Origin: a virus
DNA length: 64,000 nt
IMG/VR virus record: IMGVR_UViG_3300027905_000001
Span: 15,362-79,361 of that record
Strand: one strand, 5' to 3'
In this document: positions 7,058-51,671 of the stretch, one piece after another
Layout of the letters: every line of letters starts with the position of its first letter
Position numbering within the stretch: position 1 is the first letter of the stretch
The notes under the pieces: model-generated
The model's database searches: none
What the model saw: only the letters and a program-made list of their open reading frames with translations
Told to the model about the DNA's origin: nothing
Position numbers and translations under genes: made by a program

Positions 7058-7318
7058 ATGTCTAATGAGGATGACGTTATGTTTTTCAAAATAGCAAAGG
7101 TTAAAGCCGCTATCAGCAGGGTCCTAGACGGGTGCGTAAACGAGTTGCCGGATATCCAGTTTGGATGGAGCGGATCAGTTATCGAGGTTTATTTATCCGG
7201 CGGTAATTATCAAGTCCGCAACCTTATCGAGTCCCATTTTGTAAATAGCAGGAGGTATAAAGGCGTTACAATTACAAACAACGACACCAAAAAGCGTATC
7301 AGCTTTATTTTAAATTAA
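7058..7318 (+). CDS. Hypothetical protein
   Basis: Track ORF. Confidence 0.45.
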   Translation: MSNEDDVMFFKIAKVKAAISRVLDGCVNELPDIQFGWSGSVIEVYLSGGNYQVRNLIESHFVNSRRYKGVTITNNDTKKRISFILN

Positions 7319-7339
7319 GAAATTGAAGGAGTGTTAAAA

Positions 7340-9162: not shown

Positions 9163-9351
9163 GTGGCGGAAACGTGGTTCTCTCGACTTAAAACAGAGAT
9201 AGAAGATTCGAGAGACTTGCAAGAAATTCTTGGTGTTAAAGTTATCGAGCATCTTTTGTGGAACAATATCTCTCGCGAACAATACGAAACTCTCTCTAGC
9301 CTGCGCGTAAAAAGAATCCTGGAAAATTGGCACGAAGAATTTTTGGCTTAA
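9163..9351 (+). CDS. Hypothetical small protein
   Basis: Track ORF (GTG start). Confidence 0.35.
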   Translation: MAETWFSRLKTEIEDSRDLQEILGVKVIEHLLWNNISREQYETLSSLRVKRILENWHEEFLA

Positions 9352-9406: not shown

Positions 9407-10021
9407 ATGTTTCATGCGTTCACGCTCGAACAAGCGAACCTCAGAGAGGTCCAAGGTTGGAAGGTCGGCCAACATGTCCAAGTCAAAGAATGGCGTGGTA
9501 CTTACGAAATCGAAGGCTACCACCAATACGGAAGGCAAAACGAGTACACCACTGTATACCTTGCCAAGCTCAAGAAAGACGGTACTAAGAGCAAATACAG
9601 CGGCGATACACCTATCGCTAACCTCATGCCATTGGGAGCGGCACAACCAACAACAGACAGCGCAGGACGAACAGCACTGCAGGCGGCACAGGAGCTATTC
9701 GGTAGCGGCTTTGCTAAACACGGATGGTATAACACGGATCGCGAATCACTGGTAAAGGTTGAGACGATCAGTAAGACAGGACGCGTCAAGGTGCAAGATA
9801 TAAGCGTCAAGGCTGGAATTACGGCACGTTCAAAGACTGTAGATGGACATAAAGTTTACAGTCAAGAAGATCGCCTGGTAAACTTTGCGGATCTCGAATA
9901 CGGTCTAAGTGGAGATATAAAAACATTCACGCCGCGCCTTTTTTGGGGTGAATGGGGCTTTTGGCATGATGGGGAAATTATCAAGGCCCCAGATATGAAG
10001 CTTACGTGGTTGCTAGATTAA
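9407..10021 (+). CDS. Hypothetical protein
   Basis: Track ORF with AGGAGG upstream. Confidence 0.5.
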   Translation: MFHAFTLEQANLREVQGWKVGQHVQVKEWRGTYEIEGYHQYGRQNEYTTVYLAKLKKDGTKSKYSGDTPIANLMPLGAAQPTTDSAGRTALQAAQELFGSGFAKHGWYNTDRESLVKVETISKTGRVKVQDISVKAGITARSKTVDGHKVYSQEDRLVNFADLEYGLSGDIKTFTPRLFWGEWGFWHDGEIIKAPDMKLTWLLD

Positions 10022-21600: not shown

Positions 21601-22455
21601 CTAATCTTTTTTTGTCCTGTGGTCAAAATCTTTGGCAAATAATAAATGATCTACCGTCATGCCTAAAATCCTAGATACTGTAGCCTCGCCGTAATCTCCT
21701 AATCTTTCTTCAAGTGGTTTGGGGTAGTAGTTCGTCGTAAACCCCGTCAATAGATTGGCGCGATACCTTAGATCAATCAGCCGGTAATACATCGCTTGCA
21801 CCCATTCTGTGGGTTTTTCCTTGCCGACATCGTCCAAGATCAGAGCTTGAGCCTTGGCTAAAGTTTCAATCTTTGCCTCCATGCCACTTTCGTTTTTCCT
21901 GAACTGAGCATCCCTTAACTCTGCAAGTAAGTCGGCAGACGATACAAACACAACCTGCACCCCTTTATCAAGCATGTCCTTGGCGATAATGCTGGCTAAC
22001 ATCGTTTTCCCTACTCCTGGATTTCCGAGCAATAAAAACCCTTTGGCGTCCGATTCACTTTTGATTAATTCAGGCCATAGCTTTAAGTAATTAATTACAC
22101 CCTTGTGCATGTTTCGGTTTCCGTCGTTGACTTTATAATTAGCAAGGCTGTATCTGAGCTGTTGAGATGTTAGCCCGGATGATTTTAGTTTTCTGGCCGC
22201 GTTCTTCTTAATCTTACAAACACACTCCTTGTAAAGCGTTAGTCCGTATAAGTCTTTTTCATCAGTGGCAACTATCTCCCGATCTTCACAATCAGAGCAG
22301 TTATATTTCTTTTCGACAGGTTTTAAACTGTATCCAGATGTTCCAGTGTTGAAAAGGTTAAGTCTGTTCCTAACTTCTTCCTCTGAGGATTTCGGAGAGT
22401 ATGGGGTCCGTTTCCCAAGGTTTAGAATCTCCTTGATCGATTGAATTGCTTCCAG
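21601..22455 (-). CDS. DnaC/IstB-like AAA+ helicase loader; canonical start missing
   Basis: Walker A GNPGVGKT, Walker B LILDD; first ATG at 22110, but frame stays open upstream to 22477 with no ATG/GTG/TTG; AGGGAGG precedes CTG at 22455. Confidence 0.6.
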   Translation of the reverse strand: MEAIQSIKEILNLGKRTPYSPKSSEEEVRNRLNLFNTGTSGYSLKPVEKKYNCSDCEDREIVATDEKDLYGLTLYKECVCKIKKNAARKLKSSGLTSQQLRYSLANYKVNDGNRNMHKGVINYLKLWPELIKSESDAKGFLLLGNPGVGKTMLASIIAKDMLDKGVQVVFVSSADLLAELRDAQFRKNESGMEAKIETLAKAQALILDDVGKEKPTEWVQAMYYRLIDLRYRANLLTGFTTNYYPKPLEERLGDYGEATVSRILGMTVDHLLFAKDFDHRTKKD

Positions 22456-23290
22456 TTTTGTTACCTCCCTTGGCTTTTAAGTTCTTGCCCCATTTAACAC
22501 AATTTCCCAGCCACGTATTAATCTGTGATCTTGGTTTACTTTTTACATCAAGCGGCTTATCTAGTTTGTCGAAAGACCAGTCCTTAATCGCTCCCAAGAT
22601 ATCTATGGTTGGGTATCGTTCTTGAAGCTCTCGGTACATTTTCAATTCCTTCGCCCTGTCAATCGGATAATCCTTAACTTTTTCAAGTGTGCGAATTAGG
22701 TCTATTTCATCAGGCAGAAGAATGAGATCATTTTCTTTTCTTTCTTTTACTTCCTTTCCTTTACTATTCTCTTCTTTAGGGATTTCTGTAGGAAATAATC
22801 CATCTTCAAGAGGATTAATGTCTACATTAACTACAGATGGTAGGTTGTTACCGTCAACATAAACCATATTTACAGTAAAATTATCAGTTTGCTTAGGTGG
22901 AGAAATAAGTAGATATTCAGATATGAGCGTTATCTCTTTGCGTCTTTCTACAGATTTGAAGTATCTTTTTTGGATTCCTCCGCTAGTAAGTATTTCGTAT
23001 TTTAGATACAAGGATGAATTGAAAAATTCCCACTTAATGCAATCAGAAACTATCTCGGTGATAATATTAATGTCTACATTAACCTTACTGGAGAGTAGTA
23101 ATTGTTCGCGCTCTGTCCATTTATAGAAATATCCTTCCTTATATATTTTCATAAGAAGTTTGATTAAAACCGCAAATCCAGTGATCTTATGCTTTGCTTC
23201 AATAAGCAAAACTTTGTCGTCTTGGTCCATGTCAATATCGAGGGGAAAATAATCCAATCCCTCTTTTTGCGGTCTTGCCAAGTCATTCAC
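22370..23290 (-). CDS. Replication initiation / replisome-organiser protein (DnaD-like)
   Basis: N-terminal DYFPLDIDMDQDDKVLLIEAKHKITGFAVLIKLL typical of phage replisome organisers. Confidence 0.55.
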   Translation of the reverse strand: MNDLARPQKEGLDYFPLDIDMDQDDKVLLIEAKHKITGFAVLIKLLMKIYKEGYFYKWTEREQLLLSSKVNVDINIITEIVSDCIKWEFFNSSLYLKYEILTSGGIQKRYFKSVERRKEITLISEYLLISPPKQTDNFTVNMVYVDGNNLPSVVNVDINPLEDGLFPTEIPKEENSKGKEVKERKENDLILLPDEIDLIRTLEKVKDYPIDRAKELKMYRELQERYPTIDILGAIKDWSFDKLDKPLDVKSKPRSQINTWLGNCVKWGKNLKAKGGNKTGSNSIDQGDSKPWETDPILSEILRGRS

Positions 23291-23852: not shown

Positions 23853-25079
23853 TTACTCGACCCCTATTCTAGCCCTTGCAATACCCGCATAAGCTTTTTC
23901 TTTGTCAATTCCGATAAAATGGCAACCTACACCCTTTGCGGCCAATGCGGTTGTGCCTGATCCAATAAAGGGGTCTAGCACCGTACCGCCTTGAGGTGTG
24001 ACAAGTTTAATTAAGTACTTCATGAGATCAAGGGGCTTTACGGTAGGGTGATTATTACCTTCGCCCCGTTCCCTCTTGGAGGCCTTAGCACAATAAAAGA
24101 ATCTACTTGCCCCTCCCGAATCGCCATAACTAATCATTTCCGTTCCCTCTGGACGACTTTCTCTTGCGTAAGCATTAGCCTGATAACCTTTACTTGATAC
24201 TCCCTTTTTAGCTCCAGTTCCACTTTTCAGTATGCCTGTTTGCTCATCCAGAACTGCAGCTGCTACTTCATCAAAAATTATGTTTGCGGGAAATCTTCCC
24301 AATGGATTACTTTGGCTTTCTGTTAAGTTGGTTCCCTTTCCGTTTCCATATACTGTATTTGGTGTACGTGGTGGTCTACCTCTATCGTCATTGGTCCCTA
24401 TTCGGCTATCGTTGATATTGATCCCACCTGTTCCCCATTTAAGAACATTAGCCGCCACTGTCTTTTCGCTTAATGGTTTTCTGGCAACTACAATAGGTTC
24501 ATGCGCAGGTTTTAGAGCCGTACCCCAACCGTCCCATTGCTTTGCTTCATCAGTTTGAGCATCTAGATCGAATGTTCCACCCAACTCATACGATGCTGGC
24601 CTATCTCCCTGCTCTAAATGGATGTTATTGAAACCCATCCCTTGCTGCTGAAAATTAGTCTTTTCCAGCTTGCAGTAATCCTTTGTATTAGCTGACCCGT
24701 AAAGCAGTTTACCTTCAATACCCTTGGCAATGTTGTAAGACTTAGGGAATCCACTGCCATAAATCCACATGATCTGATCCCTGATCTCGAATCCAGCGTC
24801 TTCAATAGCACAAGCCATTCGGTGGTATGTTCTGCTCCCACCGAAGGATAGTAGATATCCCCCAGGCTTTAGTACACGTAAAAATTCTTTCCACATTGCA
24901 ACGTTGTAGGCAATTCCGGTATTGTCCCAAGACTTCCCCATGAATCCCAATTCATAAGGCGCATCCGTTACGCCAGAATCTATACTATTTGCGGGTATTC
25001 CCTTCATAACTTCCAGGCAGTCACCTAAAATAATTGAATCAAGCAAACTTTTACCCCTCCCTTTACTCAGCCTGTCCAC
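23853..25079 (-). CDS. DNA methyltransferase (N6-adenine / N4-cytosine beta-class)
   Basis: N-terminal TDAPY (DPPY-like) and C-terminal VLDPFIGSGTT (FxGxG), in beta-class order. Confidence 0.65.
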   Translation of the reverse strand: MDRLSKGRGKSLLDSIILGDCLEVMKGIPANSIDSGVTDAPYELGFMGKSWDNTGIAYNVAMWKEFLRVLKPGGYLLSFGGSRTYHRMACAIEDAGFEIRDQIMWIYGSGFPKSYNIAKGIEGKLLYGSANTKDYCKLEKTNFQQQGMGFNNIHLEQGDRPASYELGGTFDLDAQTDEAKQWDGWGTALKPAHEPIVVARKPLSEKTVAANVLKWGTGGININDSRIGTNDDRGRPPRTPNTVYGNGKGTNLTESQSNPLGRFPANIIFDEVAAAVLDEQTGILKSGTGAKKGVSSKGYQANAYARESRPEGTEMISYGDSGGASRFFYCAKASKRERGEGNNHPTVKPLDLMKYLIKLVTPQGGTVLDPFIGSGTTALAAKGVGCHFIGIDKEKAYAGIARARIGVE

Positions 25080-32042: not shown

Positions 32043-32990
32043 TCATGTTAGTTTTTTACCAATTTCCAAGATAACTTTGGTAGTGCAAGCGTCACCAGCT
32101 CCTCGATACATTTGTGTGTCGCTAATTCCTGCAAGCATGACCTTATCTATGATTAAGTCAGATATGCTCTGAAGCCTCCAAAACTCACGAGGAGTTAGCC
32201 TTCTTAATCTTCCTTCAATAAGTATCTTGGGTTGCCTATTCCCGCCTTCACAGGGGGTTATGCAAGGACTTAAGCCATCAATTCCATATACTCTGCGAAT
32301 ATTGTCTTGACCATGTATATCCAGCATCCCGATGACATTAATCATTGTCATACCGCTGTGATTTCCCCCGCTATGTCCCCCTGCCGTTAATGTTCTAGCA
32401 ACTGTGGTTTTTGTTGACTTGCCGATTGTAGAATATTCGTTAACTTCGTATTCGAGAGGAAATACTTTTCCAGTACCTCGTCCTCTAAGATGTCCGACAG
32501 TGAACACCCTCTCCCGATTTTGTGGGACTCCGAAGTTTTTGCTGTTGAGCAGTTCCCACTCCACGTCATACCCCAGTGCGTCCATTTGATAGAGTATTTC
32601 GAGGTAGTCAAATCCTTTATTGCTGGATAGCATTCCCTTAACGTTTTCATAGAGAATATACTTGGGTCGATATTCTTCTGGAGTCTCCCTGACGAGTCTA
32701 AATACTTCTGAAACAAGAGAACTTCTGTCTCCCTCAAGCCCTGCTCGCTTTCCTGCAATACTAAAGTCTTGGCAAGGTGCTCCGAAGCACCACATGTCTG
32801 CCCTTGGAATGTCTGTAGCATTAGTTGCTCTAATGTCTGCACCTTCTGGCTCCTTCCCAAAAATTATTTTGTATATTTGTCGTTTGTGCTTGTCCCATTC
32901 AACCGAGTAAACACATTTATGTCCAGCTTGCTCCATGCCCATTCGGATTGTGCCGATTCCACAGAAGAGATCGATGAAGGTTAAATTCAT
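32043..32990 (-). CDS. DNA (cytosine-5)-methyltransferase
   Basis: Motif I DLFCGIG, motif IV PCQDFS, ENV, QNRERVF. Confidence 0.85.
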   Translation of the reverse strand: MNLTFIDLFCGIGTIRMGMEQAGHKCVYSVEWDKHKRQIYKIIFGKEPEGADIRATNATDIPRADMWCFGAPCQDFSIAGKRAGLEGDRSSLVSEVFRLVRETPEEYRPKYILYENVKGMLSSNKGFDYLEILYQMDALGYDVEWELLNSKNFGVPQNRERVFTVGHLRGRGTGKVFPLEYEVNEYSTIGKSTKTTVARTLTAGGHSGGNHSGMTMINVIGMLDIHGQDNIRRVYGIDGLSPCITPCEGGNRQPKILIEGRLRRLTPREFWRLQSISDLIIDKVMLAGISDTQMYRGAGDACTTKVILEIGKKLT

Positions 32991-37292: not shown

Positions 37293-37308
37293 TAAGTAAT
37301 ATTAACGC
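37293..37308. promoter_or_regulatory. Operator-like motif, copy 2 (overlaps cro-like stop codon)
   Basis: gtaagtaatattaacg. Confidence 0.5.
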
Positions 37309-37544
37309 AATGCGTCCAACACCGCCTCGGATTGGGCTTCCATTTCTACGTCTGGGAACAACTCGTTAACTGGAGTATCAAACAAGAAAGATAGCTTCAG
37401 CATTAACTTGCCACTAGGCGTTGCGTTGCCGTTCTCAATATACCTTATCATGGTCCCAGTAACTCCGACGGCAGCGCCTACTTTATCCTGTGTGCCATAG
37501 GCTCTTCTTAGTTGTTTGAATCTTTCTCGTTTATGTCTTGTCAT
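37302..37544 (-). CDS. Cro-like HTH XRE-family regulator (first gene of leftward early operon)
   Basis: AYGTQDKVGAAVGVTGTMIRYIENG; divergent from CI-like gene. Confidence 0.6.
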   Translation of the reverse strand: MTRHKRERFKQLRRAYGTQDKVGAAVGVTGTMIRYIENGNATPSGKLMLKLSFLFDTPVNELFPDVEMEAQSEAVLDALR

Positions 37545-37598: not shown

Positions 37599-37645
37599 GC
37601 AATATGTAAATTATACTTTCTTTTATGGAAATGAGGAAAATATTT

Positions 37646-37984
37646 ATGATTATCGGTATGGGCAGTAGAATTAGAGTTCTTCGACTTGAACGAGGGTTAA
37701 CACAGGACCAAATGGCATATAAACTGGACATGAATCGTGCGAATTTCTCACATTACGAAAGAGACACATCTTCCCCACCGTGCGAAGTTCTGGTCAAAAT
37801 AGCTGATATTTTAAATACAACTACAGATTTCCTTCTTGGACGCACAGATACTAATCCACCCGATGCTGCAACAATCAAACAACTACAAGGAATTAATGAA
37901 TTACCGCAAGACAAGAGAAGATTTGTAATAAATATAATAAATTCGATTATTTCAGAAATAATCGAAGAGGCTAAGGAGGAATAG
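37646..37984 (+). CDS. CI-like HTH XRE-family repressor, coupled to integrase
   Basis: RBS GAGGAAAA; VLRLERGLTQDQMAYKLDMNRANFSHYERD; stop 3 nt before integrase ATG. Confidence 0.6.
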   Translation: MIIGMGSRIRVLRLERGLTQDQMAYKLDMNRANFSHYERDTSSPPCEVLVKIADILNTTTDFLLGRTDTNPPDAATIKQLQGINELPQDKRRFVINIINSIISEIIEEAKEE

Positions 37985-37986
37985 GT

Positions 37987-39465
37987 ATGCATGGAATACT
38001 ATACCTGCGCAAAAGCAGAGAAGATGAGCAATATGAAAAAAATACTGGCGAAGATGTTCTGCAAACCCATCGCGAACGTTTGGTTATGCTCTGTAAGTCG
38101 CGGGAAATTACCTTCGACGAACGCGCAGAGGTACGAAGCGGTGATACGATCGCAGGTCGGCCTAAATTTCAGAATATACTAGATACGGATCTCCCCTCTG
38201 GTCAATACTCTTGTATCATTGTTACTGAAATTTCTCGACTTGGCAGAGGGGACATGGAGGATGCAGGAAGAATATACAAAACCATAATCCACAACGAGAT
38301 TAAGATTGTCACGCCGAATAAAATATATGATCCGTTAAACCCTTCCGATCTTCGCCAGCTAAGGTTCGAGCTATTCATGTCTCGGGAGGAATACGAAAGC
38401 ATTAAGGAAAGACTATGGAATAATAGAAATTACCGGGCAACACAAGGTTATGCCGGCAATTATATTGTCACGCTCGGTTTTCGCCAGTCCAGGGGGATAG
38501 TCGAGATAATCCCCGAAGAGGAAAAATTAGTGCTTGAAATATTTACGATGCGCTCTGAAAATTACTCCTATCAAGAAATAGCGGATTACTTTAATTCCAG
38601 AAATTTAAAGACAAAACGCGGAACAAAGTATCATGAATCTACAATATATAAGATATTAAAAAATCCCAGGTATATAGGAGTGGCTAAGTGGCAAGGCAAG
38701 GAATATATAGCTAAGCACCCTGCGATAGTCTCATTGGACCTATGGAACTCTGCGCAGGATATCAACGCTGAAAGACATCACAAGAGACGAGGGTCAAAAA
38801 ACGATAACCCTTATCTAGTAGAGCTATACTGTCGAGAATGCGGGCAAAGGATGTACGGGGAACGCTCTACCCCGCAAAGGGTAATAGATGGTGTTCGAAA
38901 GCTATATAAAAGCAGAGACATCTATATTTGTAGGGGCAGAAAAAGCATCCCTAAATGTTGGCACCACATAGGAGCCAGCGTTGTTCACTCGACCATCCTT
39001 GATGAGCTTGGGAAGATAATATCAGATCCGCAGATTTTTCTTGAGTTAGTCAACGAGAGAGAATCAAGACTTGGCGTCGATACTAATGGTTTATCAGATC
39101 AAGTGGATGAATTAAATAAGCAAGTCAAGGATAAAAACATCCTTTTGGTAAAAATAGAGAACGATTATGAAAAAGGCGACCTATCCGCTTTGCTATATAC
39201 TAAACACGTTGAAAAAATATCCAAAGAAATAGCATCTATTGAAGGTAGGATAAAAAAAATTAAGGCCGATTTATTAAAATCAGCCATTAAGATTAGTCCT
39301 CCTATGGAATTACAATCAATTTTGAAAACATTCCTAAATAACTGGAACGCCTATCCTAATAGTGACAAGAAGCTCATCATTAGATCATTTCTTCCCAGGG
39401 TTGAGGTGAACAAGCAGGGTGAATTCTTTATCGCTATTACTTTGCCTGATTCTATCGAAATTTAG
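37987..39465 (+). CDS. Large serine recombinase (phage integrase, serine type)
   Basis: N-terminal resolvase-type catalytic domain (YLRKSREDE), recombinase domain, Cys-rich zinc ribbon, C-terminal coiled coil; 492 aa. Confidence 0.8.
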   Translation: MHGILYLRKSREDEQYEKNTGEDVLQTHRERLVMLCKSREITFDERAEVRSGDTIAGRPKFQNILDTDLPSGQYSCIIVTEISRLGRGDMEDAGRIYKTIIHNEIKIVTPNKIYDPLNPSDLRQLRFELFMSREEYESIKERLWNNRNYRATQGYAGNYIVTLGFRQSRGIVEIIPEEEKLVLEIFTMRSENYSYQEIADYFNSRNLKTKRGTKYHESTIYKILKNPRYIGVAKWQGKEYIAKHPAIVSLDLWNSAQDINAERHHKRRGSKNDNPYLVELYCRECGQRMYGERSTPQRVIDGVRKLYKSRDIYICRGRKSIPKCWHHIGASVVHSTILDELGKIISDPQIFLELVNERESRLGVDTNGLSDQVDELNKQVKDKNILLVKIENDYEKGDLSALLYTKHVEKISKEIASIEGRIKKIKADLLKSAIKISPPMELQSILKTFLNNWNAYPNSDKKLIIRSFLPRVEVNKQGEFFIAITLPDSIEI

Positions 39466-39515
39466 CAAACGGGAAACCTTCCGACAATTTCAAAATAGGG
39501 AAGGTTTCCCGTTTG
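39466..39515 (+). terminator. 17-bp perfect inverted repeat after integrase stop (terminator or att-site candidate)
   Basis: caaacgggaaaccttcc / ggaaggtttcccgtttg around a 16-nt loop. Confidence 0.5.
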
Positions 39516-39520
39516 CGGTT

Positions 39521-39784
39521 TTATATCTTTCCTTCATATAATAAGGATTTCAAGAGTTCTATTCCGTCATTGAATCCCTGCTTATATGTATTTTCCAGAA
39601 GAGCATCCACTCTTGATGTTGATAATTCTTCATAGCGATCAAAAATATTTCTTTCCTTACCCAGTAATCTTATTATGTCAACGCTCAAGGAAATGGATTC
39701 TTTTATCCACTCACTGTAATCAGTTGTTTCTTTTGTTTTTTGATAAGCAACGCCAAAGATTCTTTCCGGCATCAGCTTGTCCAT
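39521..39784 (-). CDS. Hypothetical protein
   Basis: Track ORF. Confidence 0.3.
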   Translation of the reverse strand: MDKLMPERIFGVAYQKTKETTDYSEWIKESISLSVDIIRLLGKERNIFDRYEELSTSRVDALLENTYKQGFNDGIELLKSLLYEGKI

Positions 39785-40194
39785 GATAATATCAAGTATT
39801 TTTTCAGTCGGAATATTTTTTTCAATATCTATATCCTCATCTCCTGCCTGAATTTATGTTTTACCAGTCTCTATATACTAGAACGTGTGTTCTTAATTTT
39901 CAAGGGGTAATTTGTCGCAAAAGAAATAAATCGTTTCTCTTCCCCTTTCTCTCGCTACCCGTAGGAACAAAGTCCTACAATCAGTCCTAGATATAATTCA
40001 GAATATTTATTTAAGTTATTGACAGTATACGCTATAACGTTTGTCGAAATCGCGTGAAATAAAGGAGGCCAAATGTGAATATTTTGTGATTATAAATTAT
40101 ACTTAAGTCTACATATTATAATACCTGCTACATTTTTGTGTTAGCAGGATTAATCCTATCCTCTGTGGAAGTATTTTCCTATGGTGGTGAGGCG

Positions 40195-40416
40195 ATGGAT
40201 TTAGAAGATAAGTTAAAGGATAACAAAATACAATACATACTAGACAAGCGTGATATGTCGCAAAAAGACCTTGCCGCAACGCTCGGGTGGTGGCCGAGTG
40301 ACATAAGCGACATCGTTAACGGTAAGGTTAAGCGCCTTACGCTCATTCGCGCTTCGATGATATCCGTTGCTCTCGGGTATTCGGTTGAGTATATTTGGCC
40401 TACTTTATTCAAGTAG
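40195..40416 (+). CDS. HTH XRE-like regulator
   Basis: ATG after GGTGGTGAGG; MSQKDLAATLGWWPSDISDIVNGK. Confidence 0.5.
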   Translation: MDLEDKLKDNKIQYILDKRDMSQKDLAATLGWWPSDISDIVNGKVKRLTLIRASMISVALGYSVEYIWPTLFK

Positions 40417-40431
40417 GCCAAATATTTTTTT
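40396..40431 (+). terminator. Rho-independent terminator overlapping gene 3' end
   Basis: 9-bp stem tggcctact/agtaggcca then T-run. Confidence 0.65.
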
Positions 40432-40553
40432 ATATTTTTTTAGTCATAAAATTAGACTTTCGTCTATATACTTTATCACACCCAGTAAGCCACCGTCACA
40501 CCACGTCTTACACTATACTACGCCAGTCAGACAAAATTTTGAGAGGTGAGAAT

Positions 40554-40760
40554 GTGAAGAAAAGAAGAACTTTTTGGGACGGAGATGATCTTTGCTCAAA
40601 GCTAGACGCAATACCAGAAAATGAACTAAGTACCATAATCCGCATGGCACTACGAGCATGGTTTAAGATCGACAGCAAGCCCGAACTAACCGTTACCGAC
40701 GCAAGGCAGATAGCGCAGGAGCTGGTAAGGCAACGCAAAGTTGAAAGGAGCGAACGCTAA
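40554..40760 (+). CDS. Ribbon-helix-helix-like small protein
   Basis: GTG start after GAGAGGTGAG; RRTFWDGDDL...STIIRMALRAWF. Confidence 0.4.
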   Translation: MKKRRTFWDGDDLCSKLDAIPENELSTIIRMALRAWFKIDSKPELTVTDARQIAQELVRQRKVERSER

Positions 40761-40921
40761 TGTTCTGGAAGAAATCCATTAAAGCCTCCAAACTCTCAGG
40801 GCTTATCAAGGAAATAGCTAAGGCGGCATCATTAGTACCTTATGGGGATGGCGCGCTGGACTTAGGTTGGGAGGAACTAACCGTCAGTGATCTACTCGAA
40901 TGGATGGAGGAAAGTTTATAG
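40760..40921 (+). CDS. Hypothetical small protein (53 aa)
   Basis: TAATG coupling to upstream gene; not in track. Confidence 0.35.
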   Translation: MFWKKSIKASKLSGLIKEIAKAASLVPYGDGALDLGWEELTVSDLLEWMEESL

Positions 40922-40938
40922 GAAGTGAGGTTGAAATA

Positions 40939-41166
40939 ATGGACATAACTAAAATCCAAAAAATCGTTCGCAAGGCTATCAAGGACTACGCCATTACCGC
41001 AAAGTACGATGAGGAAATTCTAGTATCATTTCTCAGCGTGGATATTTTCCGGGAGATCAACGAGGATTCCCCGGCACCTCTCTCGGATCCCAAGGCTCCC
41101 CCTCGCCGCAATACTAACCAGAATGCATTAGGTCTGGTAAATCACGAAGCAGGTGAAACGCCATGA
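40939..41166 (+). CDS. Hypothetical small protein
   Basis: ATG after GTGAGG. Confidence 0.4.
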   Translation: MDITKIQKIVRKAIKDYAITAKYDEEILVSFLSVDIFREINEDSPAPLSDPKAPPRRNTNQNALGLVNHEAGETP

Positions 41167-42491
41167 GTGAAAAATCATCGTCCGTAAAGCCCGACCTGAT
41201 CGGCTTGACATCCTCTACTCTGGTCAAACTTGGACGCTTTGCCCTACGTCATATCGGCAGTCCCAACAACTCCTATGCGAACAAGATAATGCTGAACTGG
41301 AAACGCAATGACATATGCACCGAAACCAAAGAGCGAGGCAAGGATTACACAGAGAAGAAATACCCTACGCTAGTGGAAAAGACAATGAAGGGTCATAATC
41401 GAGTACTTAGATACAAGATACCCACCGGTCTAAATCCGCAGAAAGTCATGAAATCCCTCTACGACATCGAGTTCGATCTCAAGTCAGAAGTCCTATTCAA
41501 GCGACTTGAGAACGATCCCAAAGCGCACTTCTCACTCACTATCTTATCCGGCAAACTGTTAGACATTATCAACTACTCCAACGAGGCCAGTATTACTCCA
41601 GATGGCAAGGAGTTAAGCAAAGGTCTATGGATACCTCTAGGGTGGTCAAGAAGGGGCTTGGAACAACTTAATTTAGCCTCTAGCAACAGCCCTCATCTTA
41701 TGATCGGAGGGGCTACAGGAGGCGGCAAGAGCATCCTTGGCAGGCTTATCCTTGCTACCCTCCATATCCGCTATAACCGTGATGAATGCCGACTATGGCT
41801 CTGTGACCTTAAACATGGCAACGGCACAGCAAGGCTAGGGAAAAACCCTCTCCTTGTAGATAGGACTATTTCTGATCCGGGCGAAGCAGAACAAATGATG
41901 GACGATCTCTCTGTGATTATTGGCGAGCGATATAATTTATTTAAGGAGTATGAGTGCGACGATTTACAGGCGTTTAACGAGGAATATCCAAGATTGAGAT
42001 TGCCGCGCATTGTGGTTTATGTGGATGAATTAACCAAACTTGAGGGCAAGGAGTTCTCCAGGGCTCGTGAAAAGATGACTAAAGTCACGGGGGAATCCAG
42101 GGGTGCAGGAGTGCATGTTATTATCTCTTGTCACAGGCCCACAGCTAACCTTGTGTCCGGCACGATGAAGAACAATATCTCTGCCGTTGTCGCGTTTAAT
42201 TGCAACGCTGTATCGGCTCGTGTGTTGCTTGGAGAAGATCCGGAGGATTACAAGGCAGCCAGCATGATTGATCCAGATATCGAAGGTCGAGCATTGTTTA
42301 AATTTAAAGATGAGGTATTGCTGCAGGTCCCCTACATCGACAACCATGCAATCAAGTCCCTTATGGCCAACTATCAAAAAGCGATAATTAAAGGTAAGGT
42401 CGAGCCAGTGATACAGGCTGTTATTTCCACTAGGGTGGTTGAGCACTCAGTCGGGCACTCACTCGGTCATACTATTGAGCACCCCCAGTGA
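41163..42491 (+). CDS. FtsK/SpoIIIE-family DNA translocase-like ATPase
   Basis: Walker A GGATGGGKS, Walker B VVYVDE. Confidence 0.75.
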   Translation: MSEKSSSVKPDLIGLTSSTLVKLGRFALRHIGSPNNSYANKIMLNWKRNDICTETKERGKDYTEKKYPTLVEKTMKGHNRVLRYKIPTGLNPQKVMKSLYDIEFDLKSEVLFKRLENDPKAHFSLTILSGKLLDIINYSNEASITPDGKELSKGLWIPLGWSRRGLEQLNLASSNSPHLMIGGATGGGKSILGRLILATLHIRYNRDECRLWLCDLKHGNGTARLGKNPLLVDRTISDPGEAEQMMDDLSVIIGERYNLFKEYECDDLQAFNEEYPRLRLPRIVVYVDELTKLEGKEFSRAREKMTKVTGESRGAGVHVIISCHRPTANLVSGTMKNNISAVVAFNCNAVSARVLLGEDPEDYKAASMIDPDIEGRALFKFKDEVLLQVPYIDNHAIKSLMANYQKAIIKGKVEPVIQAVISTRVVEHSVGHSLGHTIEHPQ

Positions 42492-42614
42492 TTGTACTCA
42501 ACGATTCAATGCGCTTTATAGGCTCCTTTGGTCATGCCGTGCGGTCCGTAAAGTGCTTTATTATCCTTACTTTTTTATTTTGTATTTATTTTATATTTTT
42601 GCGAGGTGAAAATT

Positions 42615-43244
42615 GTGAACTTAGTGGCATATGGCAAGCAACGAGACGAACGAATTATGGGGCTAGTAGGGCTTGGGACAGCCTTTACGCGAAGCCAAAT
42701 AGAGCGAGTTATATTTAAGGGAAGTAAGCGTAAGGCTCAGACTAGACTGCAGGTGCTATCCGATTCAGGGCGACTAAAAAAGATTATCCGCAGTCCCCAC
42801 GAACCAGCCATCTATTGCCTCAAAAAACCCCGAAATATCGATCATTATTTACTTATCAATGAAATCTATTGTGCCGTAATGTCTCAGAAAAAGTCTTGGC
42901 ATATCGTCAAGTGGCAATGGTCATATCCAATTATGGAAGGTAAGATTTGGGCAGACGCAATGGTTGATATTTACGACCAACTCAATAAGCGTAGGCATGT
43001 TATATTTGTTGAGGTTGAGCGTTACGCAGACCGTAAGTTCGAGAAGGATAAAAAGTATTCAGCCATTACCAGCGCGAACTGGACGAAAGAAGAGTGGGCG
43101 ATTAAGGAGCCTACAAGGATATTGTTCCCGGCAATCCTAGTTGTCACCGAATGCAAATTAGAGGTCAAAAGCGAGTTGGATTTCTTTGTTGCCACGATGG
43201 ACCAAGTCAAAAAAGACATTTACTCTATTATCTTAAGGAGGTAA
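42615..43244 (+). CDS. Replication-relaxation family protein (putative)
   Basis: GTG after GAGGTGA; N-terminal winged-helix-like segment; assignment from memory. Confidence 0.4.
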   Translation: MNLVAYGKQRDERIMGLVGLGTAFTRSQIERVIFKGSKRKAQTRLQVLSDSGRLKKIIRSPHEPAIYCLKKPRNIDHYLLINEIYCAVMSQKKSWHIVKWQWSYPIMEGKIWADAMVDIYDQLNKRRHVIFVEVERYADRKFEKDKKYSAITSANWTKEEWAIKEPTRILFPAILVVTECKLEVKSELDFFVATMDQVKKDIYSIILRR

Positions 43245-43248
43245 CACC

Positions 43249-43467
43249 ATGGGTAAACTAGGAAAAGTGACCACAAAGGCCACCTATGGAATCCTGAATC
43301 TGGCGATGAAACCTATTTACGATCAGATGAAAAAAGAGAGAAAAGAAGAAGTTAAAAGATGGAACAAATCGCTAGATATAGCTTCTCAGGATGCAATGGC
43401 CGAGGCTAGATATTTTGAAGTAAGGCAGCCGTTTGATTCGATTATCCACAAGCACCCATTGTGGTAG
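43249..43467 (+). CDS. Hypothetical small protein
   Basis: Track ORF. Confidence 0.4.
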   Translation: MGKLGKVTTKATYGILNLAMKPIYDQMKKERKEEVKRWNKSLDIASQDAMAEARYFEVRQPFDSIIHKHPLW

Positions 43468-43490
43468 TAATGACAATAGTAATGACTTTT

Positions 43491-43570
43491 AGCCCCTTCG
43501 TAAACCGAGGGGCTATTTTAATGCCCTGACATAACGAAACCCCAGCATTTGCCGGGGGTTAGTTTTTATT
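43491..43570 (+). terminator. Two tandem hairpin terminators
   Basis: agccccttcg...cgaggggct + ATTTTAAT; aaccccagc...gccgggggtt + AGTTTTTATT. Confidence 0.55.
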
Positions 43571-43645
43571 CTCTATTATTTATGGCTATTCGGATTATAT
43601 GGTGGAAAATGAGTTTGGAATTTCCAGTTTTATAATAAATAATTA

Positions 43646-43700
43646 CTACTATTATAGCGTTATCGCTTGACAAATTATAGCGATAACGCTATAATAGTAG
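43646..43700. promoter_or_regulatory. Perfect 22-bp inverted repeat enclosing a consensus promoter (TTGACA-17-TATAAT)
   Basis: ctactattatagcgttatcgct (43646-43667) is the exact reverse complement of 43679-43700; -35 at 43667-43672, -10 at 43690-43695. Confidence 0.75.
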
Positions 43701-43763
43701 TAACAGCTAAAGATTACATGAACCCGACAGCCCATAAGGGGCGGGGCGAGAGGAGAATATAAA

Positions 43764-44624
43764 ATGGCAAATGAAGTCGTCAAGGAATACTACAAATGGG
43801 ATGAAACAGGTGAAGCTTTTGGCATAAGTATAAGCTACGATGCCGGAGATGACTGTGGTCCAGTTGCTGGGCTTAAACTAAGTGGTGGACAACCAAAAGA
43901 AGTCAACGGTCAAAATGTCGTTTGGTTCGAAAAAACAACCAAAGGTCAGCCCGTCGCCATAAAGTATAACAGCCGTCCCGATTTAGCAGCCCTTGTGAAC
44001 GAGTATAAAAAGTTTCAGGCTGAGCAACAAACAAGGCATAATACCCGGGCTGCTGCACATCAAGCCGAGCGGGAAGCCATAGACAACCCTCTACTTGAGG
44101 ACATGGAAGCAGAAGCTGTTGAATTGCGGAAAAAGATTCCGACCGGGCATATCGAGGTTGATGTCGAGGATAATGGCAATCTTGACGGCTATCCTAATTT
44201 AAAATACTCAGTAAACGGCGTTGAATTGCCTTGGGATAAGGTCAACCATATTGGCACTGCGAGTGCGATTCGCCCAGGCGCATTAGGTTCTTTTGCTCAA
44301 ATTTATGTCGTATCTATCGCCAAGGATCAAATCGAACAAATCAAAAAAGAGCAGGAAGAGAAATCGGCAATCAACCAAGCTAAAAAAGAGGCTTACCAAA
44401 GAGAATTAACTGGGACTATAATCCCTCCGGCGGCCTTAGAGGCTTACAACTATTACCACGGTGACGCAGAACTAGCATGGGAAAAAGAAGATGAATCCTC
44501 TTGGGCTCTTATTGAACGATGGACCACTTATATCGAGGCACAACATGGGATTGCCCCTCGTAAATTACAGCACATGGTTTCGGAATCCGCGCGCGAAGAG
44601 AATTATGGGATCAATGAGGGTTAG
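43764..44624 (+). CDS. Hypothetical protein (286 aa) under the palindromic operator
   Basis: RBS GAGAGGAG; track ORF. Confidence 0.5.
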   Translation: MANEVVKEYYKWDETGEAFGISISYDAGDDCGPVAGLKLSGGQPKEVNGQNVVWFEKTTKGQPVAIKYNSRPDLAALVNEYKKFQAEQQTRHNTRAAAHQAEREAIDNPLLEDMEAEAVELRKKIPTGHIEVDVEDNGNLDGYPNLKYSVNGVELPWDKVNHIGTASAIRPGALGSFAQIYVVSIAKDQIEQIKKEQEEKSAINQAKKEAYQRELTGTIIPPAALEAYNYYHGDAELAWEKEDESSWALIERWTTYIEAQHGIAPRKLQHMVSESAREENYGINEG

Positions 44625-44645
44625 TGGAGAGAGTGTTTGAAAAAA

Positions 44646-44680
44646 GAAAGAGCCGTAATCAATCGGCTCTTTCTGGATAA
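44646..44680 (+). terminator. Rho-independent terminator
   Basis: gaaagagccg / cggctctttc stem then T-rich. Confidence 0.6.
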
Positions 44681-44784
44681 CTTTTTATTTCAATCCACGC
44701 CTTACGGCGACAATCCTTGATGGGATTTATTACCCATAATATAATCCAAATAGCAGTATATGTCAAGACTAAGGAGGGCATTTC

Positions 44785-45492
44785 GTGAAAAAGAAACATC
44801 GGTCTATTTCGCAGATACTTGATAGATCGAAATCTGCCGAATCAAGAAGAGCTATCACTATAAATTGGTCAAAGTCATGGGAAAATGAGACCATGGAACT
44901 CATACGTAACCTTGAACAGGCTGTAAGGGCCATGGATTACGATCAGCTATGCATTAATACCAGGCAGCTTAAGGCGGTTACTCAAAAACGTTTTGGAGCC
45001 CTGCCAAATATATTTATGCACCTCACTAAGGCTGGTGCCGCAGAGAAAAACCCGGAAAAAGAACCCGAACCATTAGCCAATGCAGCTGTACAAGATATAC
45101 ACAAAAAGCAGGATGTCCCAAAAGAACCAGATGAGCCGAGCCATGCGGAGGAGCAGCATGTGCCCGGAATCTGCATAGACTGTGGTGTCAGTTTTAATGC
45201 TAAAACCAGCCGCCAAAAGCGGTGCCCCGAGTGCCAAGTTGAACACAACAAGGCGTTACGGTTAGCCGCGGCCAAGGCAACTCAAGATGTCAAAAGAGAT
45301 AGGCCTCTTTTGGATATCATGGAGGGATACATTACGGTAAAAGAATGGGCGAGCAAGCACGGTAAGAGTCCGTCCAGCGCTCAGAATATATTGTCCAATT
45401 CCCCTACTCTTGTACCAGCTGCCAGAAAGGTGCGCAATCCTCGCGGCGGCGTGGATATCTGGGTCGTACCAAAAGAGACAATATGGCCTTAA
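44785..45492 (+). CDS. Hypothetical protein with C-terminal zinc ribbon
   Basis: GTG start after AAGGAGGG; CIDCG...CPEC. Confidence 0.45.
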   Translation: MKKKHRSISQILDRSKSAESRRAITINWSKSWENETMELIRNLEQAVRAMDYDQLCINTRQLKAVTQKRFGALPNIFMHLTKAGAAEKNPEKEPEPLANAAVQDIHKKQDVPKEPDEPSHAEEQHVPGICIDCGVSFNAKTSRQKRCPECQVEHNKALRLAAAKATQDVKRDRPLLDIMEGYITVKEWASKHGKSPSSAQNILSNSPTLVPAARKVRNPRGGVDIWVVPKETIWP

Positions 45493-45513
45493 TAAAATAA
45501 AGGAATGATAGCG

Positions 45514-45693
45514 ATGGAACTTAAAGACGTACTAACAGGTCCCGAAGCTGCGCAACTTTGGAGCATTGGAGAGTCAACAGTCCGCAATGCAGCTGCGGCG
45601 GGTAAATTCAACGAAGACGAAGCTCGAAGGGCAGGGAAAAACTGGCTAATCACCAGAGAAGGCATGAAAAGAGTATTTGGTGATCCTAACTAA
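45514..45693 (+). CDS. Small HTH DNA-binding protein (excisionase-like)
   Basis: LTGPEAAQLWSIGESTVRNAAAAGKF...WLITREGMKRVFG. Confidence 0.45.
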   Translation: MELKDVLTGPEAAQLWSIGESTVRNAAAAGKFNEDEARRAGKNWLITREGMKRVFGDPN

Positions 45694-47085: not shown

Positions 47086-47630
47086 TTAGCGTGTTTGAAT
47101 GTGCCGTAGGTCCCAGGGGGGAGTTATTCCTATTTCTTTTGTGCTTTTTATTGTGTGATCCCAAAGAATAAGAGGGTAGTCCGTCTTGTATCCCCTTATG
47201 CCTAATATTGACGAACGTCTTTGCGCTCTGCCTTTTTCCTTCTCCGACTTGTCGAATCCGTAGTATATGGTAACTTCTTCGCAAATTCCGTCTTTGACAG
47301 GGAAATTTTCCTTGAGGTATTTATCGAAGGGAACCGTTTTTATTCTGTTTGTGCAAAGTATTTGTCCTGCTCCAAACTTGAACCCTCCTACTTCTCGGCA
47401 TACATCGAATTGGTCTTTTACTTCCCATCCGTCCATATTTGCGTAGGTAATCGGAACGCCTATATAATTTGCTACATCACCCTTGAACCGTTTTATATCC
47501 GCATCCTCTACCCTTTTATTAATATCGTGATTAAGGAGGATTAAATCTTTAGTTCCGTATTTCCTAGCTACTTCTATTGCTGTTTTTGCCGAACTATGTC
47601 CTCCAGAGTAACAAATCAAGCGTTTTATAA
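47086..47630 (-). CDS. PP-loop ATP-pyrophosphatase-like protein (PAPS-reductase/QueC-like superfamily, putative)
   Basis: SGGHSS P-loop-like motif in LICYSGGHSSAKTA; start uncertain (track 47697 overlaps upstream HTH ORF). Confidence 0.35.
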
Positions 47631-47635
47631 TTATT

Positions 47636-47815
47636 TTACCTCCCCTTCTCGATCCATTCAAGGACCGAATTTCTCTCAATTCTCCAATCTCTGGCAATCT
47701 TAAACGCCCTTAGTCCTCCACTTTTAATTGCCCTCTTGACCGTTTGTTCGCTCACTTTTAAAAATGTTGCAAGTTCTTTAGGGGTTGTGATTTCTGGTAA
47801 ATTATCAAGTACCAA
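47636..47815 (-). CDS. Excisionase-family HTH DNA-binding protein (59 aa)
   Basis: TTG after GGAGG; TPKELATFLKVSEQTVKRAIKSGGLRAFKIARDWRIERNSVLEWI; not in track. Confidence 0.45.
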   Translation of the reverse strand: MVLDNLPEITTPKELATFLKVSEQTVKRAIKSGGLRAFKIARDWRIERNSVLEWIEKGR

Positions 47816-49299: not shown

Positions 49300-49812
49300 T
49301 TATGCAGTTTGTTCTTCCTTCTCTTCGACAACAGGAGTAACCACAACAGGCTTAACAACAGGAGCCCATTGTATCTTACTCAACTCCTGCTGTACAACAC
49401 TAACAATACCGAGTGCATCAGGAGCAATCTTCTGTACTGCAGCCGTAATCATGGCGTTAATTTTTTCCTCAGTATAAGGTGTAGCGGTCCCAACTAACTG
49501 TGCAAGTTCATCTTTAGCTTTTTTGTACGCACTCTCGATAAGTGTTTCCCATTGCGAATCTGTAAGGCTAATTCCTGCTTTTTTAGCAAGTTCCTTGACC
49601 GATGCAAGTGCAGCAACATATTTTCCTGAGCCCAGTGTTACACCGTGCTTTTCTGCGTATTGAGCGGCGAAGTTGACCGCTTCTGTTGCGAGTTCTCCTG
49701 CTGTGGCGAGTTGTTTGGATGAGATGTGTAGCTTGCCGATGATGGCGACGATTACGGCTACGGCGAGACTTGCGGCGATGTTTACACCTTGAGTTATTGT
49801 TGTCATATCCAT
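49300..49812 (-). CDS. Holin, LL-H-like family
   Basis: N-terminal TM (NIAASLAVAVIVAIIG), then amphipathic region resembling LL-H-type holins; ATG 49812 after AAGGGGGA. Confidence 0.55.
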   Translation of the reverse strand: MDMTTITQGVNIAASLAVAVIVAIIGKLHISSKQLATAGELATEAVNFAAQYAEKHGVTLGSGKYVAALASVKELAKKAGISLTDSQWETLIESAYKKAKDELAQLVGTATPYTEEKINAMITAAVQKIAPDALGIVSVVQQELSKIQWAPVVKPVVVTPVVEEKEEQTA

Positions 49813-49897
49813 ATTAAAGATATCCCCCTTTTGTTTTAATAAGAGTTGGTGTGATGGGTTGTTATTAAAGCGACTAGGTATTATGCACAAAGGCTAT

Positions 49898-50107
49898 TTA
49901 TTCGCGCCGAGCTATGCTCGCATTTCCCCACATAACTGCTTCTTCAATAGCGGTTATGGCTAAGGATTGTTCTCTTGAGGGTGGGCATAACGTTAAAATT
50001 ATCTCAGCAAATGCTTTGCCCATGCCCCTAATTTCCTCGAACCTTTGTGCTTGCCCATCTTTCGGGTCATGATAAGTAAAACGGTTTTCCAATTCATTCT
50101 CATCCAT
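49898..50107 (-). CDS. Conserved small phage protein, unknown function
   Basis: RFTYHDP...SREQSLAITAIEEAVMWGNASIA; family not identified. Confidence 0.45.
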   Translation of the reverse strand: MDENELENRFTYHDPKDGQAQRFEEIRGMGKAFAEIILTLCPPSREQSLAITAIEEAVMWGNASIARRE

Positions 50108-50867: not shown

Positions 50868-51671
50868 TTACCCCACCACTCCCAACACAGCTTTCATCGT
50901 TGCCCACCGATCAGCACCAGCCAGCAACGCAACCCCACTGGGTGCACTAGAACCCCCAACCTGATACTTAGTTGTCGCCATAGCTAACAATGCAGGAGTC
51001 GCAAAACTAGCCTGTACAATCGGGCAATTAAGCTTCAATGCCAAGTCTGCCGCAATCGGTAAATCTGCGTCTCCATAATAAAGCACTAAGTAATTCATAC
51101 TTCCTCCAATCTCCGGCCAACAGCCAGAACCGTAATTAATTTCGTTTAGGTCAACACTGATACCCGCTATTTGAGTATCGTTTTGATACTGATAAATGTC
51201 ATTGCCCTCGTGTATCTCACCGCCTGACCACGCATATGTCTGCCAATAGCGGTCAACGTCAAGGGCTTGCATGACCGCGTAAGAGCCGTAAACTCCTAAG
51301 AGGTATTTGCTCCCTAATCCATCGCCCACGCCCTGGAAATAGTCCACTATGGCTCCCATATCAGTAGATTGTGCGTCGAAGTCAACCGTGAAATATATCG
51401 CTATGCCGTTTGGTGCTCTGAGGTTGACGGCAGCTGTTATGGCTTGTGCTGCGTCTGATATGCCTTGATTGTAGGTGAAATAGGATGCGGTTGTGGGATT
51501 TGTTTCAAAGATGAGGAATACGGATAAGCTTGCATTGTGGATGGCTGTGAGTTCGGTTGGAGTTAATGCGTAATCGCCAGTGAGGTAGCGGCCTACGGCC
51601 ACTACTCCATCAGCTTTTAGGACTGTTACTATTGCCGCGGTTAAAGTTGCTGCACAATCTATCGCTTCCAT
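50868..51671 (-). CDS. Endolysin candidate: glycoside-hydrolase-like (DUF1906-type) domain plus cell-wall-binding-like C-terminus
   Basis: GVVAVGRYL, YFTVDFDAQ blocks; C-terminal LLAGADRWATMKAV resembles CWB2 repeats. Confidence 0.5.
   Translation of the reverse strand: MEAIDCAATLTAAIVTVLKADGVVAVGRYLTGDYALTPTELTAIHNASLSVFLIFETNPTTASYFTYNQGISDAAQAITAAVNLRAPNGIAIYFTVDFDAQSTDMGAIVDYFQGVGDGLGSKYLLGVYGSYAVMQALDVDRYWQTYAWSGGEIHEGNDIYQYQNDTQIAGISVDLNEINYGSGCWPEIGGSMNYLVLYYGDADLPIAADLALKLNCPIVQASFATPALLAMATTKYQVGGSSAPSGVALLAGADRWATMKAVLGVVG

Follow-up and report, generated by a model that had tools for sequence, protein, structure and literature searches.

Hundreds of temperate Bacillus-type phages carry a gene for an FtsK/SpoIIIE-type ATPase that adjoins a gene annotated as 'replication-relaxation'. 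The arrangement has been reported as gp21-23 of BtCS33, in gamma-like phages, in phiCM3, in B. subtilis 268TH007 and on Mangrovibacillus pBac41 (a plasmid record). It comprises a small open reading frame (ORF), a soluble FtsK-like protein, a PF13814 protein and another small ORF, placed between the lysis genes and the integrase or attachment (att) site. Two B. subtilis phages that are 96% identical differ by a 2.5-kb block of exactly these genes (PMC9476937), and in 2024 an operon of FtsK, replication-relaxation and caspase genes was described in a plasmid-like prophage (PMC11526630). For the B. cereus group, a review of the phages suggests 'DNA translocation during infection' or an effect on sporulation (PMC4113786). 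Here, we analyse a block of this kind at 39466-45693 of a 64,000-nt stretch of viral DNA (positions 15,362 to 79,361 of IMG/VR virus record IMGVR_UViG_3300027905_000001). This whole 64-kb stretch is called the window, and all positions refer to it.

PF13814 is the MOBC relaxase family. Its tested member, TraX of pAD1, combines an N-terminal winged helix with a restriction-endonuclease-like active site, and binds direct repeats away from the nic site—a covalent intermediate was not detected (PMC12857230, PMC5357655, PMC3424549). The family is named partly after a plasmid replication protein, that of pUA140 (PMC3424549). In integrative mobilisable elements (IMEs) and in integrative and conjugative elements (ICEs) of the Tn916/ICESt3 type, an FtsK-related ATPase likewise lies directly upstream of a relaxase-family gene, close to genes for integration and regulation (PMC5357655). 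The HerA/FtsK-type pairs, namely NurA-HerA, HerA-nuclease defence and the TdtA operon of ICETh1, also place a nuclease beside a ring ATPase of this superfamily. In this Thermus element, the FtsK-like ATPase and nucleases jointly drive DNA donation (PMC5365140).

The block in the window is probably an accessory cassette of a temperate Desulfosporosinus phage, best read as a relaxosome-like DNA-processing module that has been recruited by phages; confidence is high in its identity and in its placement within the phage. This kind of cassette is already known and widely annotated, and the copy in the window is a divergent member in a new host group. The locus thereby extends the cassette to phages of anaerobic sulfate-reducing Peptococcaceae. 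The block is a mosaic: four modules share the arm that runs from the integrase and its phage attachment site (attP) to the lysis genes. The first module holds phage lysogeny functions (cI, a serine integrase and a small convergent gene) and the second a stand-alone helix-turn-helix (HTH) regulator. The third is a conserved operon that starts with a gene for a basic protein and two small ORFs and continues with the genes for a soluble FtsK/TcpA-like ATPase, a nuclease of MOBC type and the 72-aa protein. The fourth is a swappable cargo unit with a palindrome-controlled promoter and an HTH_59 gene at its end. Family calls rest on Pfam matches above the gathering score and on PHROG matches; the small ORFs and the 286-aa and 235-aa proteins were also compared with Pfam at a permissive E-value. 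The second to fourth modules read as follows:

40138/40195-40416, plus strand: Xre-type HTH regulator (HTH_3, E 3.6e-7), a transcription unit of its own
40391-40425: terminator with a 15-bp stem, closing the unit of the Xre-type regulator
40466-40540, plus strand: C/A-rich, G-poor leader before the cassette operon
40554-40760, plus strand: 68-aa basic protein, first gene of the cassette operon, without family match
40760-40921, plus strand: 53-aa protein, a called gene without family match
40939-41166, plus strand: 75-aa protein (o75), its gene overlapping the start of the FtsK-like gene
41163-42491, plus strand: FtsK/SpoIIIE-type ATPase of 442 aa (PF01580; PHROG 1358)
42606/42615-43244, plus strand: Replic_Relax protein (PF13814, MOBC-type), called RepRelax below
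43249-43467, plus strand: 72-aa protein (o72), third member of the core trio
43490-43515, plus strand: intrinsic terminator that ends the cassette operon
43643-43703: perfect 25-nt inverted repeat around a promoter, before the 286-aa gene
43764-44624, plus strand: 286-aa acidic protein (o286), cargo, without family match
44785-45492, plus strand: 235-aa protein (o235) with a CxxC...CxxC zinc ribbon, cargo
45505/45514-45693, plus strand: HTH_59 protein (MerR/excisionase-like); no further plus-strand gene precedes the lysis arm

All genes called at 40195-45693 lie on the plus strand, both in the ORF listing and by gene calling, and the block falls into at least three transcription units split by terminators; it is not a single operon. 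An earlier sequence-only reading of this DNA had listed an HTH protein, small ORFs, a 442-aa FtsK-like protein with the motifs GGATGGGKS and VVYVDE, a replication-relaxation-like protein, two unknowns and an excisionase-like HTH protein downstream of a serine recombinase. The ORF listing, Pfam and PHROG bear out this content with its coordinates, the motifs and the recombinase. A minus-strand gene at 39521-39784, also within 39466-45693, was absent from that list.

The ATPase matches FtsK_SpoIIIE in Pfam (E 7.8e-13) and PHROG 1358 (E 2.6e-50), with GGATGGGKS as Walker A and VVYVDE as Walker B motif. Against solved structures, its profile finds EssC (4nh0, 1e-46) and the TcpA protein of pCW3 (6o1w, 6o1x and 6o1z, ~4e-46) ahead of FtsK (4e-39), and NCBIfam gives sub-threshold matches only (EssC, plasmid TraB, FtsK). 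Judged by these profiles, the ATPase groups with transfer and translocation ATPases and not with packaging ATPases. No transmembrane segment is found in it, the N-terminal 170 residues included, and its Kyte-Doolittle hydropathy over 19 residues peaks at 1.47. The versions of the Bacillus phages are likewise without a hydrophobic segment. In three more distant relatives (P0063, P0067 and P0073), this value rises to 2.8-3.2 around residues ~37-70, which corresponds to a clear N-terminal membrane helix.

RepRelax matches PF13814 with 29.8 bits (cut-off 25.3, E 8e-7), and PF13814 matches are precomputed for many of its homologues. Its true start is the GTG at 42615, which follows a GAGGTGA ribosome-binding site and yields a protein of 209 aa. 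The protein consists of an N-terminal winged helix and a C-terminal PD-(D/E)XK nuclease domain with conserved acidic residues, a fold that was confirmed; the nearest folds include restriction enzymes and the CRISPR ancillary nucleases Can1, Can2 and Cdn1. RepRelax hence shares with the MOBC relaxases pAD1 TraX and CloDF13 MobC the PF13814 family, the winged helix, the restriction-endonuclease-like catalytic domain and the conserved acidic residues (PMC12857230). It differs from them by its small size, by the absence of conjugation genes nearby and of a recognised origin of transfer (oriT), direct-repeat site or nic site, and its nicking activity is only predicted. A repeat array like the five binding repeats of TraX was not found at the locus.

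Searched with tblastn, the ATPase finds 338 phage records, 224 of which are Bacillus phages, and most hosts of the phages that carry it are spore formers. Identity to the Bacillus phage relatives is 27% (E ~1e-19 to 1e-24). RepRelax itself gives no tblastn match among phages and plasmids and, being too divergent for this search, was compared by hhalign. This yields a probability of 95% over ~170 columns for BtCS33 gp23 and for its counterpart on pBac41, 85% for a 231-aa protein beside FtsK on Priestia plasmids, and a weak match to a protein of phage PK2. A megablast search of 37.6-46.1 kb against phage records has no match. The gene orders agree. BtCS33 runs from holin and endolysin through two opposite-strand genes (a hypothetical one, then one for an HTH regulator) to a further hypothetical gene, the FtsK-like gene and a 'replication initiation protein', followed by an HTH DNA-binding gene and the integrase, both again on the opposite strand. 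On pBac41, holin and amidase precede three genes, among them one for an HTH regulator on the opposite strand. Next are a hypothetical gene, FtsK, the replication-relaxation protein and another hypothetical gene, after which come integrase, ImmA and cI (opposite strand) and then cro. The third module is homologous to the 'FtsK + replication-relaxation' pair of Bacillus phages, with both proteins having counterparts and the cassette lying between lysis genes and integrase/att in both cases. L006 and the prophage end of D. paludis agree with this location. The two versions differ in the host clade, which is new for the window (Peptococcaceae, Desulfosporosinus), and the sequences are very divergent. 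Moreover, the BtCS33 operon is co-oriented with the lytic genes, whereas the operon in the window is co-oriented with cI and int. Compared with BtCS33, the version in the window has more small ORFs, a conserved 72-aa partner and a cargo slot closed by HTH_59.

A related plasmid record, Priestia megaterium pBP01R2f (L141; 5296 bp), consists of a hypothetical protein, an FtsK-like protein and a RepRelax-like protein, has no annotated replication gene and is typed as non-mobilisable. The trio might serve as the replicon of this plasmid, provided that the record is complete.

Closer relatives of the ATPase occur in 13 viral contigs and three genome loci (64-83% identical), along with ~60 metagenomic proteins of more than 40% identity. 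In all 17 loci that could be examined, the ATPase, RepRelax and o72 are present with their order kept, with one extra gene inserted before the o72 gene in some of them. The 72-aa protein is thus a constant neighbour downstream of RepRelax (17/17, 48-85% identity), and the related loci with enough flank are phage-like without exception (17/17). The accompanying integrase is variable: L006 and L020 have a tyrosine integrase, and the serine recombinase of L005, L015 and L016 shares only ~22% identity with that of the window. Variable elements also surround the trio. Homologues of the 68-aa protein (50-53% identity) take the equivalent position in L005, L015 and L020, and homologues of o75 (73-76% identical) lie immediately 5' of FtsK in L010-L013, so that o75 is kept in part of the family. 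Homologues of the Xre-type regulator are found upstream of the cassette in L004, L006, L019, L020 and L021. In a genome scan with a single peptide pattern, the hits beyond three Desulfosporosinus-type loci were mostly distant FtsK-like genes of Acidobacteria, which showed no RepRelax neighbour by tblastn with the window protein alone as query. Among these loci, the complete chromosome of D. paludis SB140 shows host genes with a tRNA-Leu, then the cassette, then HNH, holin and amidase genes, with no integrase in 10 kb to either side of the cassette. The cassette is here the end of an integrated prophage—an arrangement that is expected if attP lies between int and the cassette.

The cargo slot varies as well. 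Neither o286 nor o235 turned up in the related loci; L006 and L020 instead have an SNF2 helicase, a phosphoadenosine phosphosulfate (PAPS)-reductase/DUF3440 gene and other genes at this place, and an HTH_59 gene closes the region. For o286, there are 38 unnamed homologues. An 80% identical homologue comes from an unrelated phage-like contig, where neither an FtsK_SpoIIIE nor a Replic_Relax gene occurs up to 10 kb away; o286 is therefore cargo and not tied to the cassette. For o235, only weak zinc-ribbon matches are seen, and the permissive Pfam comparison assigned none of the small ORFs, o286 or o235 to a family. The closing HTH_59 protein matches PF20038 (E 6e-20) and PHROG 2655 'excisionase' (7.5e-16). 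In front of the cargo, the inverted repeat encloses a promoter at 43667-43695 with 12/12 matches to the sigma-70 consensus (TTGACA-17-TATAAT), and the half-site of the repeat occurs only once in the 64-kb window. By its architecture, the stretch 43643-43703 looks like an operator-controlled, tightly repressed promoter for the cargo unit. The cassette operon is transcriptionally autonomous and modular.

In the cargo place of L006 (14521-17991) and L020 (16791-19495), the SNF2-family helicase gene comes before the PAPS-reductase/DUF3440 gene, between cassette and HTH_59. The two may form a DNA-modification or anti-defence pair.

Upstream of the operon, the leader at 40466-40540 contains 7 G in 70 nt, which is above the 99th percentile of the locus. 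A C/A-rich tract of 70-80 nt directly 5' of the first cassette-operon gene recurs in related loci (L015 ~9705-9780; L005 ~2614-2690; L020 ~9711-9780; L004 ~7270-7330; L021 ~9270-9300), with 2 G in the copy of L005. The loci share composition and CACAC/CCAC-type words, not sequence. The leader could be a Rho-loading (rut-like) site, an unstructured leader or a binding-site array for RepRelax. Rfam has no match in 37-47 kb.

The genes around the island are those of a phage. To its right, on the minus strand, lie tail proteins, endolysin (50868-51671), holin (49300-49890), an HNH endonuclease and a PAPS-reductase-like gene. To its left, also on the minus strand, lie cro (37302-37544), Rha, Ant, two DNA methylases, an SbcC-like and a RecT-like gene and the replisome organiser (22370-23290). 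One further feature stands at the left:

3870-4769: small terminase subunit (TerS)

A scan of the larger ORFs across the window gave matches to phage-type families only, and no tRNA gene was found in the window. The order of tail, lysis, island, int and cI on one side and cro, early, replication and terminase genes on the other corresponds to the usual temperate-siphophage map when this is cut open at the packaging site, and the whole 64-kb window is one temperate siphophage genome whose host is Candidatus Desulfosporosinus infrequens. The DNA belongs to a contig in the metagenome-assembled genome SBF1 of this bacterium. As the island fills the usual lysogeny and accessory arm of this genome, its position is not one beside a prophage. 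Further, the phage owns replication genes, such as the replisome organiser, and hence the cassette is not its main replicon.

The integration module occupies the left end of this arm:

37625-37984, plus strand: cI-type repressor (HTH_31/HTH_3; PHROG 8/3/4 repressor families), divergent from cro
37987-39465, plus strand: large serine recombinase (int; Resolvase and Recombinase above gathering score, Zn_ribbon_recom weak; PHROG 95 integrase, E 5e-81)
39465-39516: perfect inverted repeat (arms of 18 nt, loop of 16 nt) that separates int from the small gene convergent with it
39521-39784, minus strand: 87-aa protein (o87), convergent with int, called as a gene in L003
39785-40137: A+T-rich spacer (GC content 0.35 in this kilobase)

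A 16-nt operator-like repeat occurs three times around cro (37194, 37292 and 37584), and int starts 2 nt past the stop of cI. Homologues of o87 (61% and 53% identical) lie directly downstream of integrases that are 73% and 70% identical to int in L137 and L138, respectively, and a homologue of int with 70% identity is the final gene of a 56-kb prophage record. Being coupled to the phage cI and travelling with the small convergent gene, int is the integrase of the phage, and int and o87 form its integration module. For integrases of this clade, o87 may act as a recombination directionality factor. A protein-based metagenome scan found three short relatives of int; these showed the int-o87 linkage and did not map attP, and an exact 26-mer from the 3' end of int has no match among metagenome contigs. 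Most likely, attP lies within the spacer 39785-40137, as judged by the GC content of 0.35, the end of the similarity to L137 and the prophage end of D. paludis on this side of the cassette. The DNA similarity between the window and the int module of L137 ends near 39798, and an imperfect inverted repeat is present at 40113-40159. The sequence-only reading had suggested mapping the att site around 39466-39515. The hairpin at 39465-39516 was set aside as attP due to its perfect G+C-rich arms and T run; it is better read as a bidirectional terminator, with an attP role less likely.

An arrangement of tandem prophages, with the int-cassette neighbourhood as their junction, was also considered. It is possible for this contig and yet unnecessary, since int and cassette adjoin in the independent viral contigs L005, L006, L015, L016 and L020.

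How the cassette might work can be proposed tentatively, as a possible rather than a probable mechanism drawn by analogy. The winged helix of RepRelax would bind a specific site on the phage DNA, and its nuclease domain would nick or cut that site. An FtsK-like hexamer would then load onto this DNA and translocate it with the small proteins assisting, so that the machine would act in the cytoplasm and independently of capsids. As its most likely output, the excised phage circle would undergo relaxase-primed replication or be handed over, much as happens with ICEs and IMEs. Such capsid-independent replication or hand-over is favoured since the closest functional analogy is the coupling-protein and relaxase module of these elements. 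The relaxase of an ICE or IME also primes rolling-circle replication of the excised element. A more far-reaching version would see in the cassette a second, capsid-independent route of ICE/IME-like replication and export—making the phage a hybrid of phage and mobilisable element—or a new type of defence built from relaxosome parts. We regard this as a long shot; if it is true, either as capsid-independent transfer or as new defence, interest would be high.

Several observations weigh against a relaxosome-like role. The ATPase does not bear the N-terminal membrane anchor of TcpA and VirD4 coupling proteins, and scans of the larger ORFs revealed no secretion-system component in the 64-kb window (a helper elsewhere in the host is possible). 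Both together make a direct docking to a conjugation pore doubtful. No oriT-like site or nic site was recognised, and the only conserved non-coding feature is the compositional C/A-rich leader. The first protein of the operon (40554-40760), correctly placed by the earlier list and labelled there as ribbon-helix-helix-like, matches no ribbon-helix-helix model in Pfam, even at the permissive E-value, which leaves this label unverified. Exact-protein look-ups towards the ends of the 123.5-kb source contig returned short Logan contigs or none, and this copy may be integrated, free or in tandem. No functional experiment on the cassette was found for any phage, and the literature offers guesses (PMC4113786, PMC11526630). 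Finally, the pairing of the ATPase with a PD-(D/E)XK domain, the moron hotspot and the patchy spread suit defence equally well.

Such a defence, or superinfection exclusion, by a prophage moron would have RepRelax cut incoming DNA and the FtsK-like translocase detect or supply the substrate, on the model of the HerA-nuclease pairs; we give it a small but real chance. The combination of an FtsK-HerA superfamily ATPase with a nuclease of restriction-endonuclease fold, near to Can1, Can2 and Cdn1, fits well here, and so does a place in the lysis-to-att arm with its own regulator and terminators. Of 80 phage loci whose anti-repressor and lysogeny regions are related, only one has an FtsK-like gene, and the block also sets near-identical phages apart (PMC9476937). 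The ATPase domain also matches the PADLOC models SspH and mad8. However, PADLOC finds no complete system, and RepRelax, o72 and the small ORFs are without a match in this database, which has no RepRelax or o72 model; membership of the HerA-nuclease pairs is therefore not seen at sequence level. RepRelax also differs from these pairs by belonging to a relaxase family and by its sequence-specific-looking winged helix. In addition, phage Fah transcribes its ATPase gene in the delayed class when it grows lytically (PMC4113786), a timing not usual for a defence gene of a prophage, and the PF13814 relatives of tested function are relaxases or replication proteins (PMC12857230, PMC3424549). A rather improbable alternative is an auxiliary replication or segregation module, in which RepRelax would serve as initiator at a second origin and the FtsK-like pump would resolve or partition the phage DNA, perhaps for plasmid-like, pseudolysogenic or spore carriage. 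Relatives of RepRelax are labelled 'replication initiation protein' by PHROG 2190, and the naming of PF13814 partly from the pUA140 replication protein points the same way (PMC3424549). The trio of hypothetical, FtsK and RepRelax-like genes resides on many Priestia and Bacillus plasmids, including the 5.3-kb record without annotated rep. RBClin15 has the operon next to parABS genes and 5' of a repA-like gene (PMC11526630), and the hosts are mostly spore formers. The phage nevertheless has an integrase and its own replisome organiser, the island is without partition genes, a soluble ATPase cannot occupy the septum like SpoIIIE, and the 5.3-kb plasmid record is linear and may be incomplete. The first step of such a module, site-specific nicking, moreover overlaps with the relaxosome-like explanation.

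The sequence-only reading had proposed an integrative element nested beside the prophage, that is, an independent IME with serine integrase, coupling protein, relaxase and excisionase. The likeness to IME mobilisation modules is real, given a TcpA-related ATPase with a PF13814/MOBC-type partner, a coupling protein upstream of a relaxase, the co-orientation of the block with int and an excisionase-like HTH protein at its far end; serine integrases also accompany MOBC relaxases in streptococcal IMEs (PMC5357655). In these IMEs, however, MOBC relaxases pair with VirD4-type coupling proteins and never with the TcpA type (PMC5357655), and the ATPase of the window is soluble. The integrase is coupled to the phage cI and is set apart from the cassette by a terminator, an opposite-strand gene and the A+T-rich spacer. 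Phage genes follow in normal order on both sides, the block lies inside a phage genome of more than 64 kb, and neither element boundaries nor att-like direct repeats flanking the block were found in 37-47 kb. The core also occurs with unrelated tyrosine and serine integrases, or without an integrase at a prophage end. The comparative data thus largely refute an independent IME, which we consider very unlikely indeed. The other option of the same reading, a novel phage accessory system, comes close to the truth. The idea of an integrative element would have been refuted by uniform conservation of the block inside related phage genomes, without independent excision, and by a packaging-type ATPase. 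Phage genomes do carry the cassette repeatedly, but its conservation is not uniform and its ATPase is not of the packaging type.

For annotation, the lesson is that an FtsK gene, a relaxase-family gene and a recombinase gene together are insufficient to call an IME. New to the description of this known cassette are that its ATPase is soluble, that the nuclease fold of the partner is confirmed, that a third protein is kept along with them and that there is a cargo slot. The cassette sits att-proximal and behaves as a swappable module, and its vague annotation can give way to hypotheses that experiments can address: processing of phage DNA in the manner of a relaxosome, defence or an auxiliary replicon.

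Some genes elsewhere in the phage touch on its dealings with the host. Next to the holin, a 69-aa gene at ~49898-50107 on the minus strand (18736-18945 in L003) has a precomputed match to Acb2_Tad1_hairpin (PF24729), which suggests that the lysis arm encodes a nucleotide sponge against CBASS (cyclic-oligonucleotide-based antiphage signalling system) or Thoeris. The early region carries two minus-strand methyltransferases, a C5-cytosine methylase (PF00145) at 32043-32990 and a PHROG 67 'DNA methyltransferase' at 23853-25079; both presumably counter host restriction. The PAPS-reductase-like gene at 47086-47697 lies on the strand opposite to the island and is shorter than its counterparts in L006 and L020.

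Lastly, near-identical RepRelax proteins (P0085 and P0086) come from separate contigs of 123.5 kb and 79.3 kb, the protein of the latter being named as Ca. D. infrequens, and several genes of the Logan contig L003 deviate from the window by single residues. The sample seems to contain closely related variants of the phage side by side.

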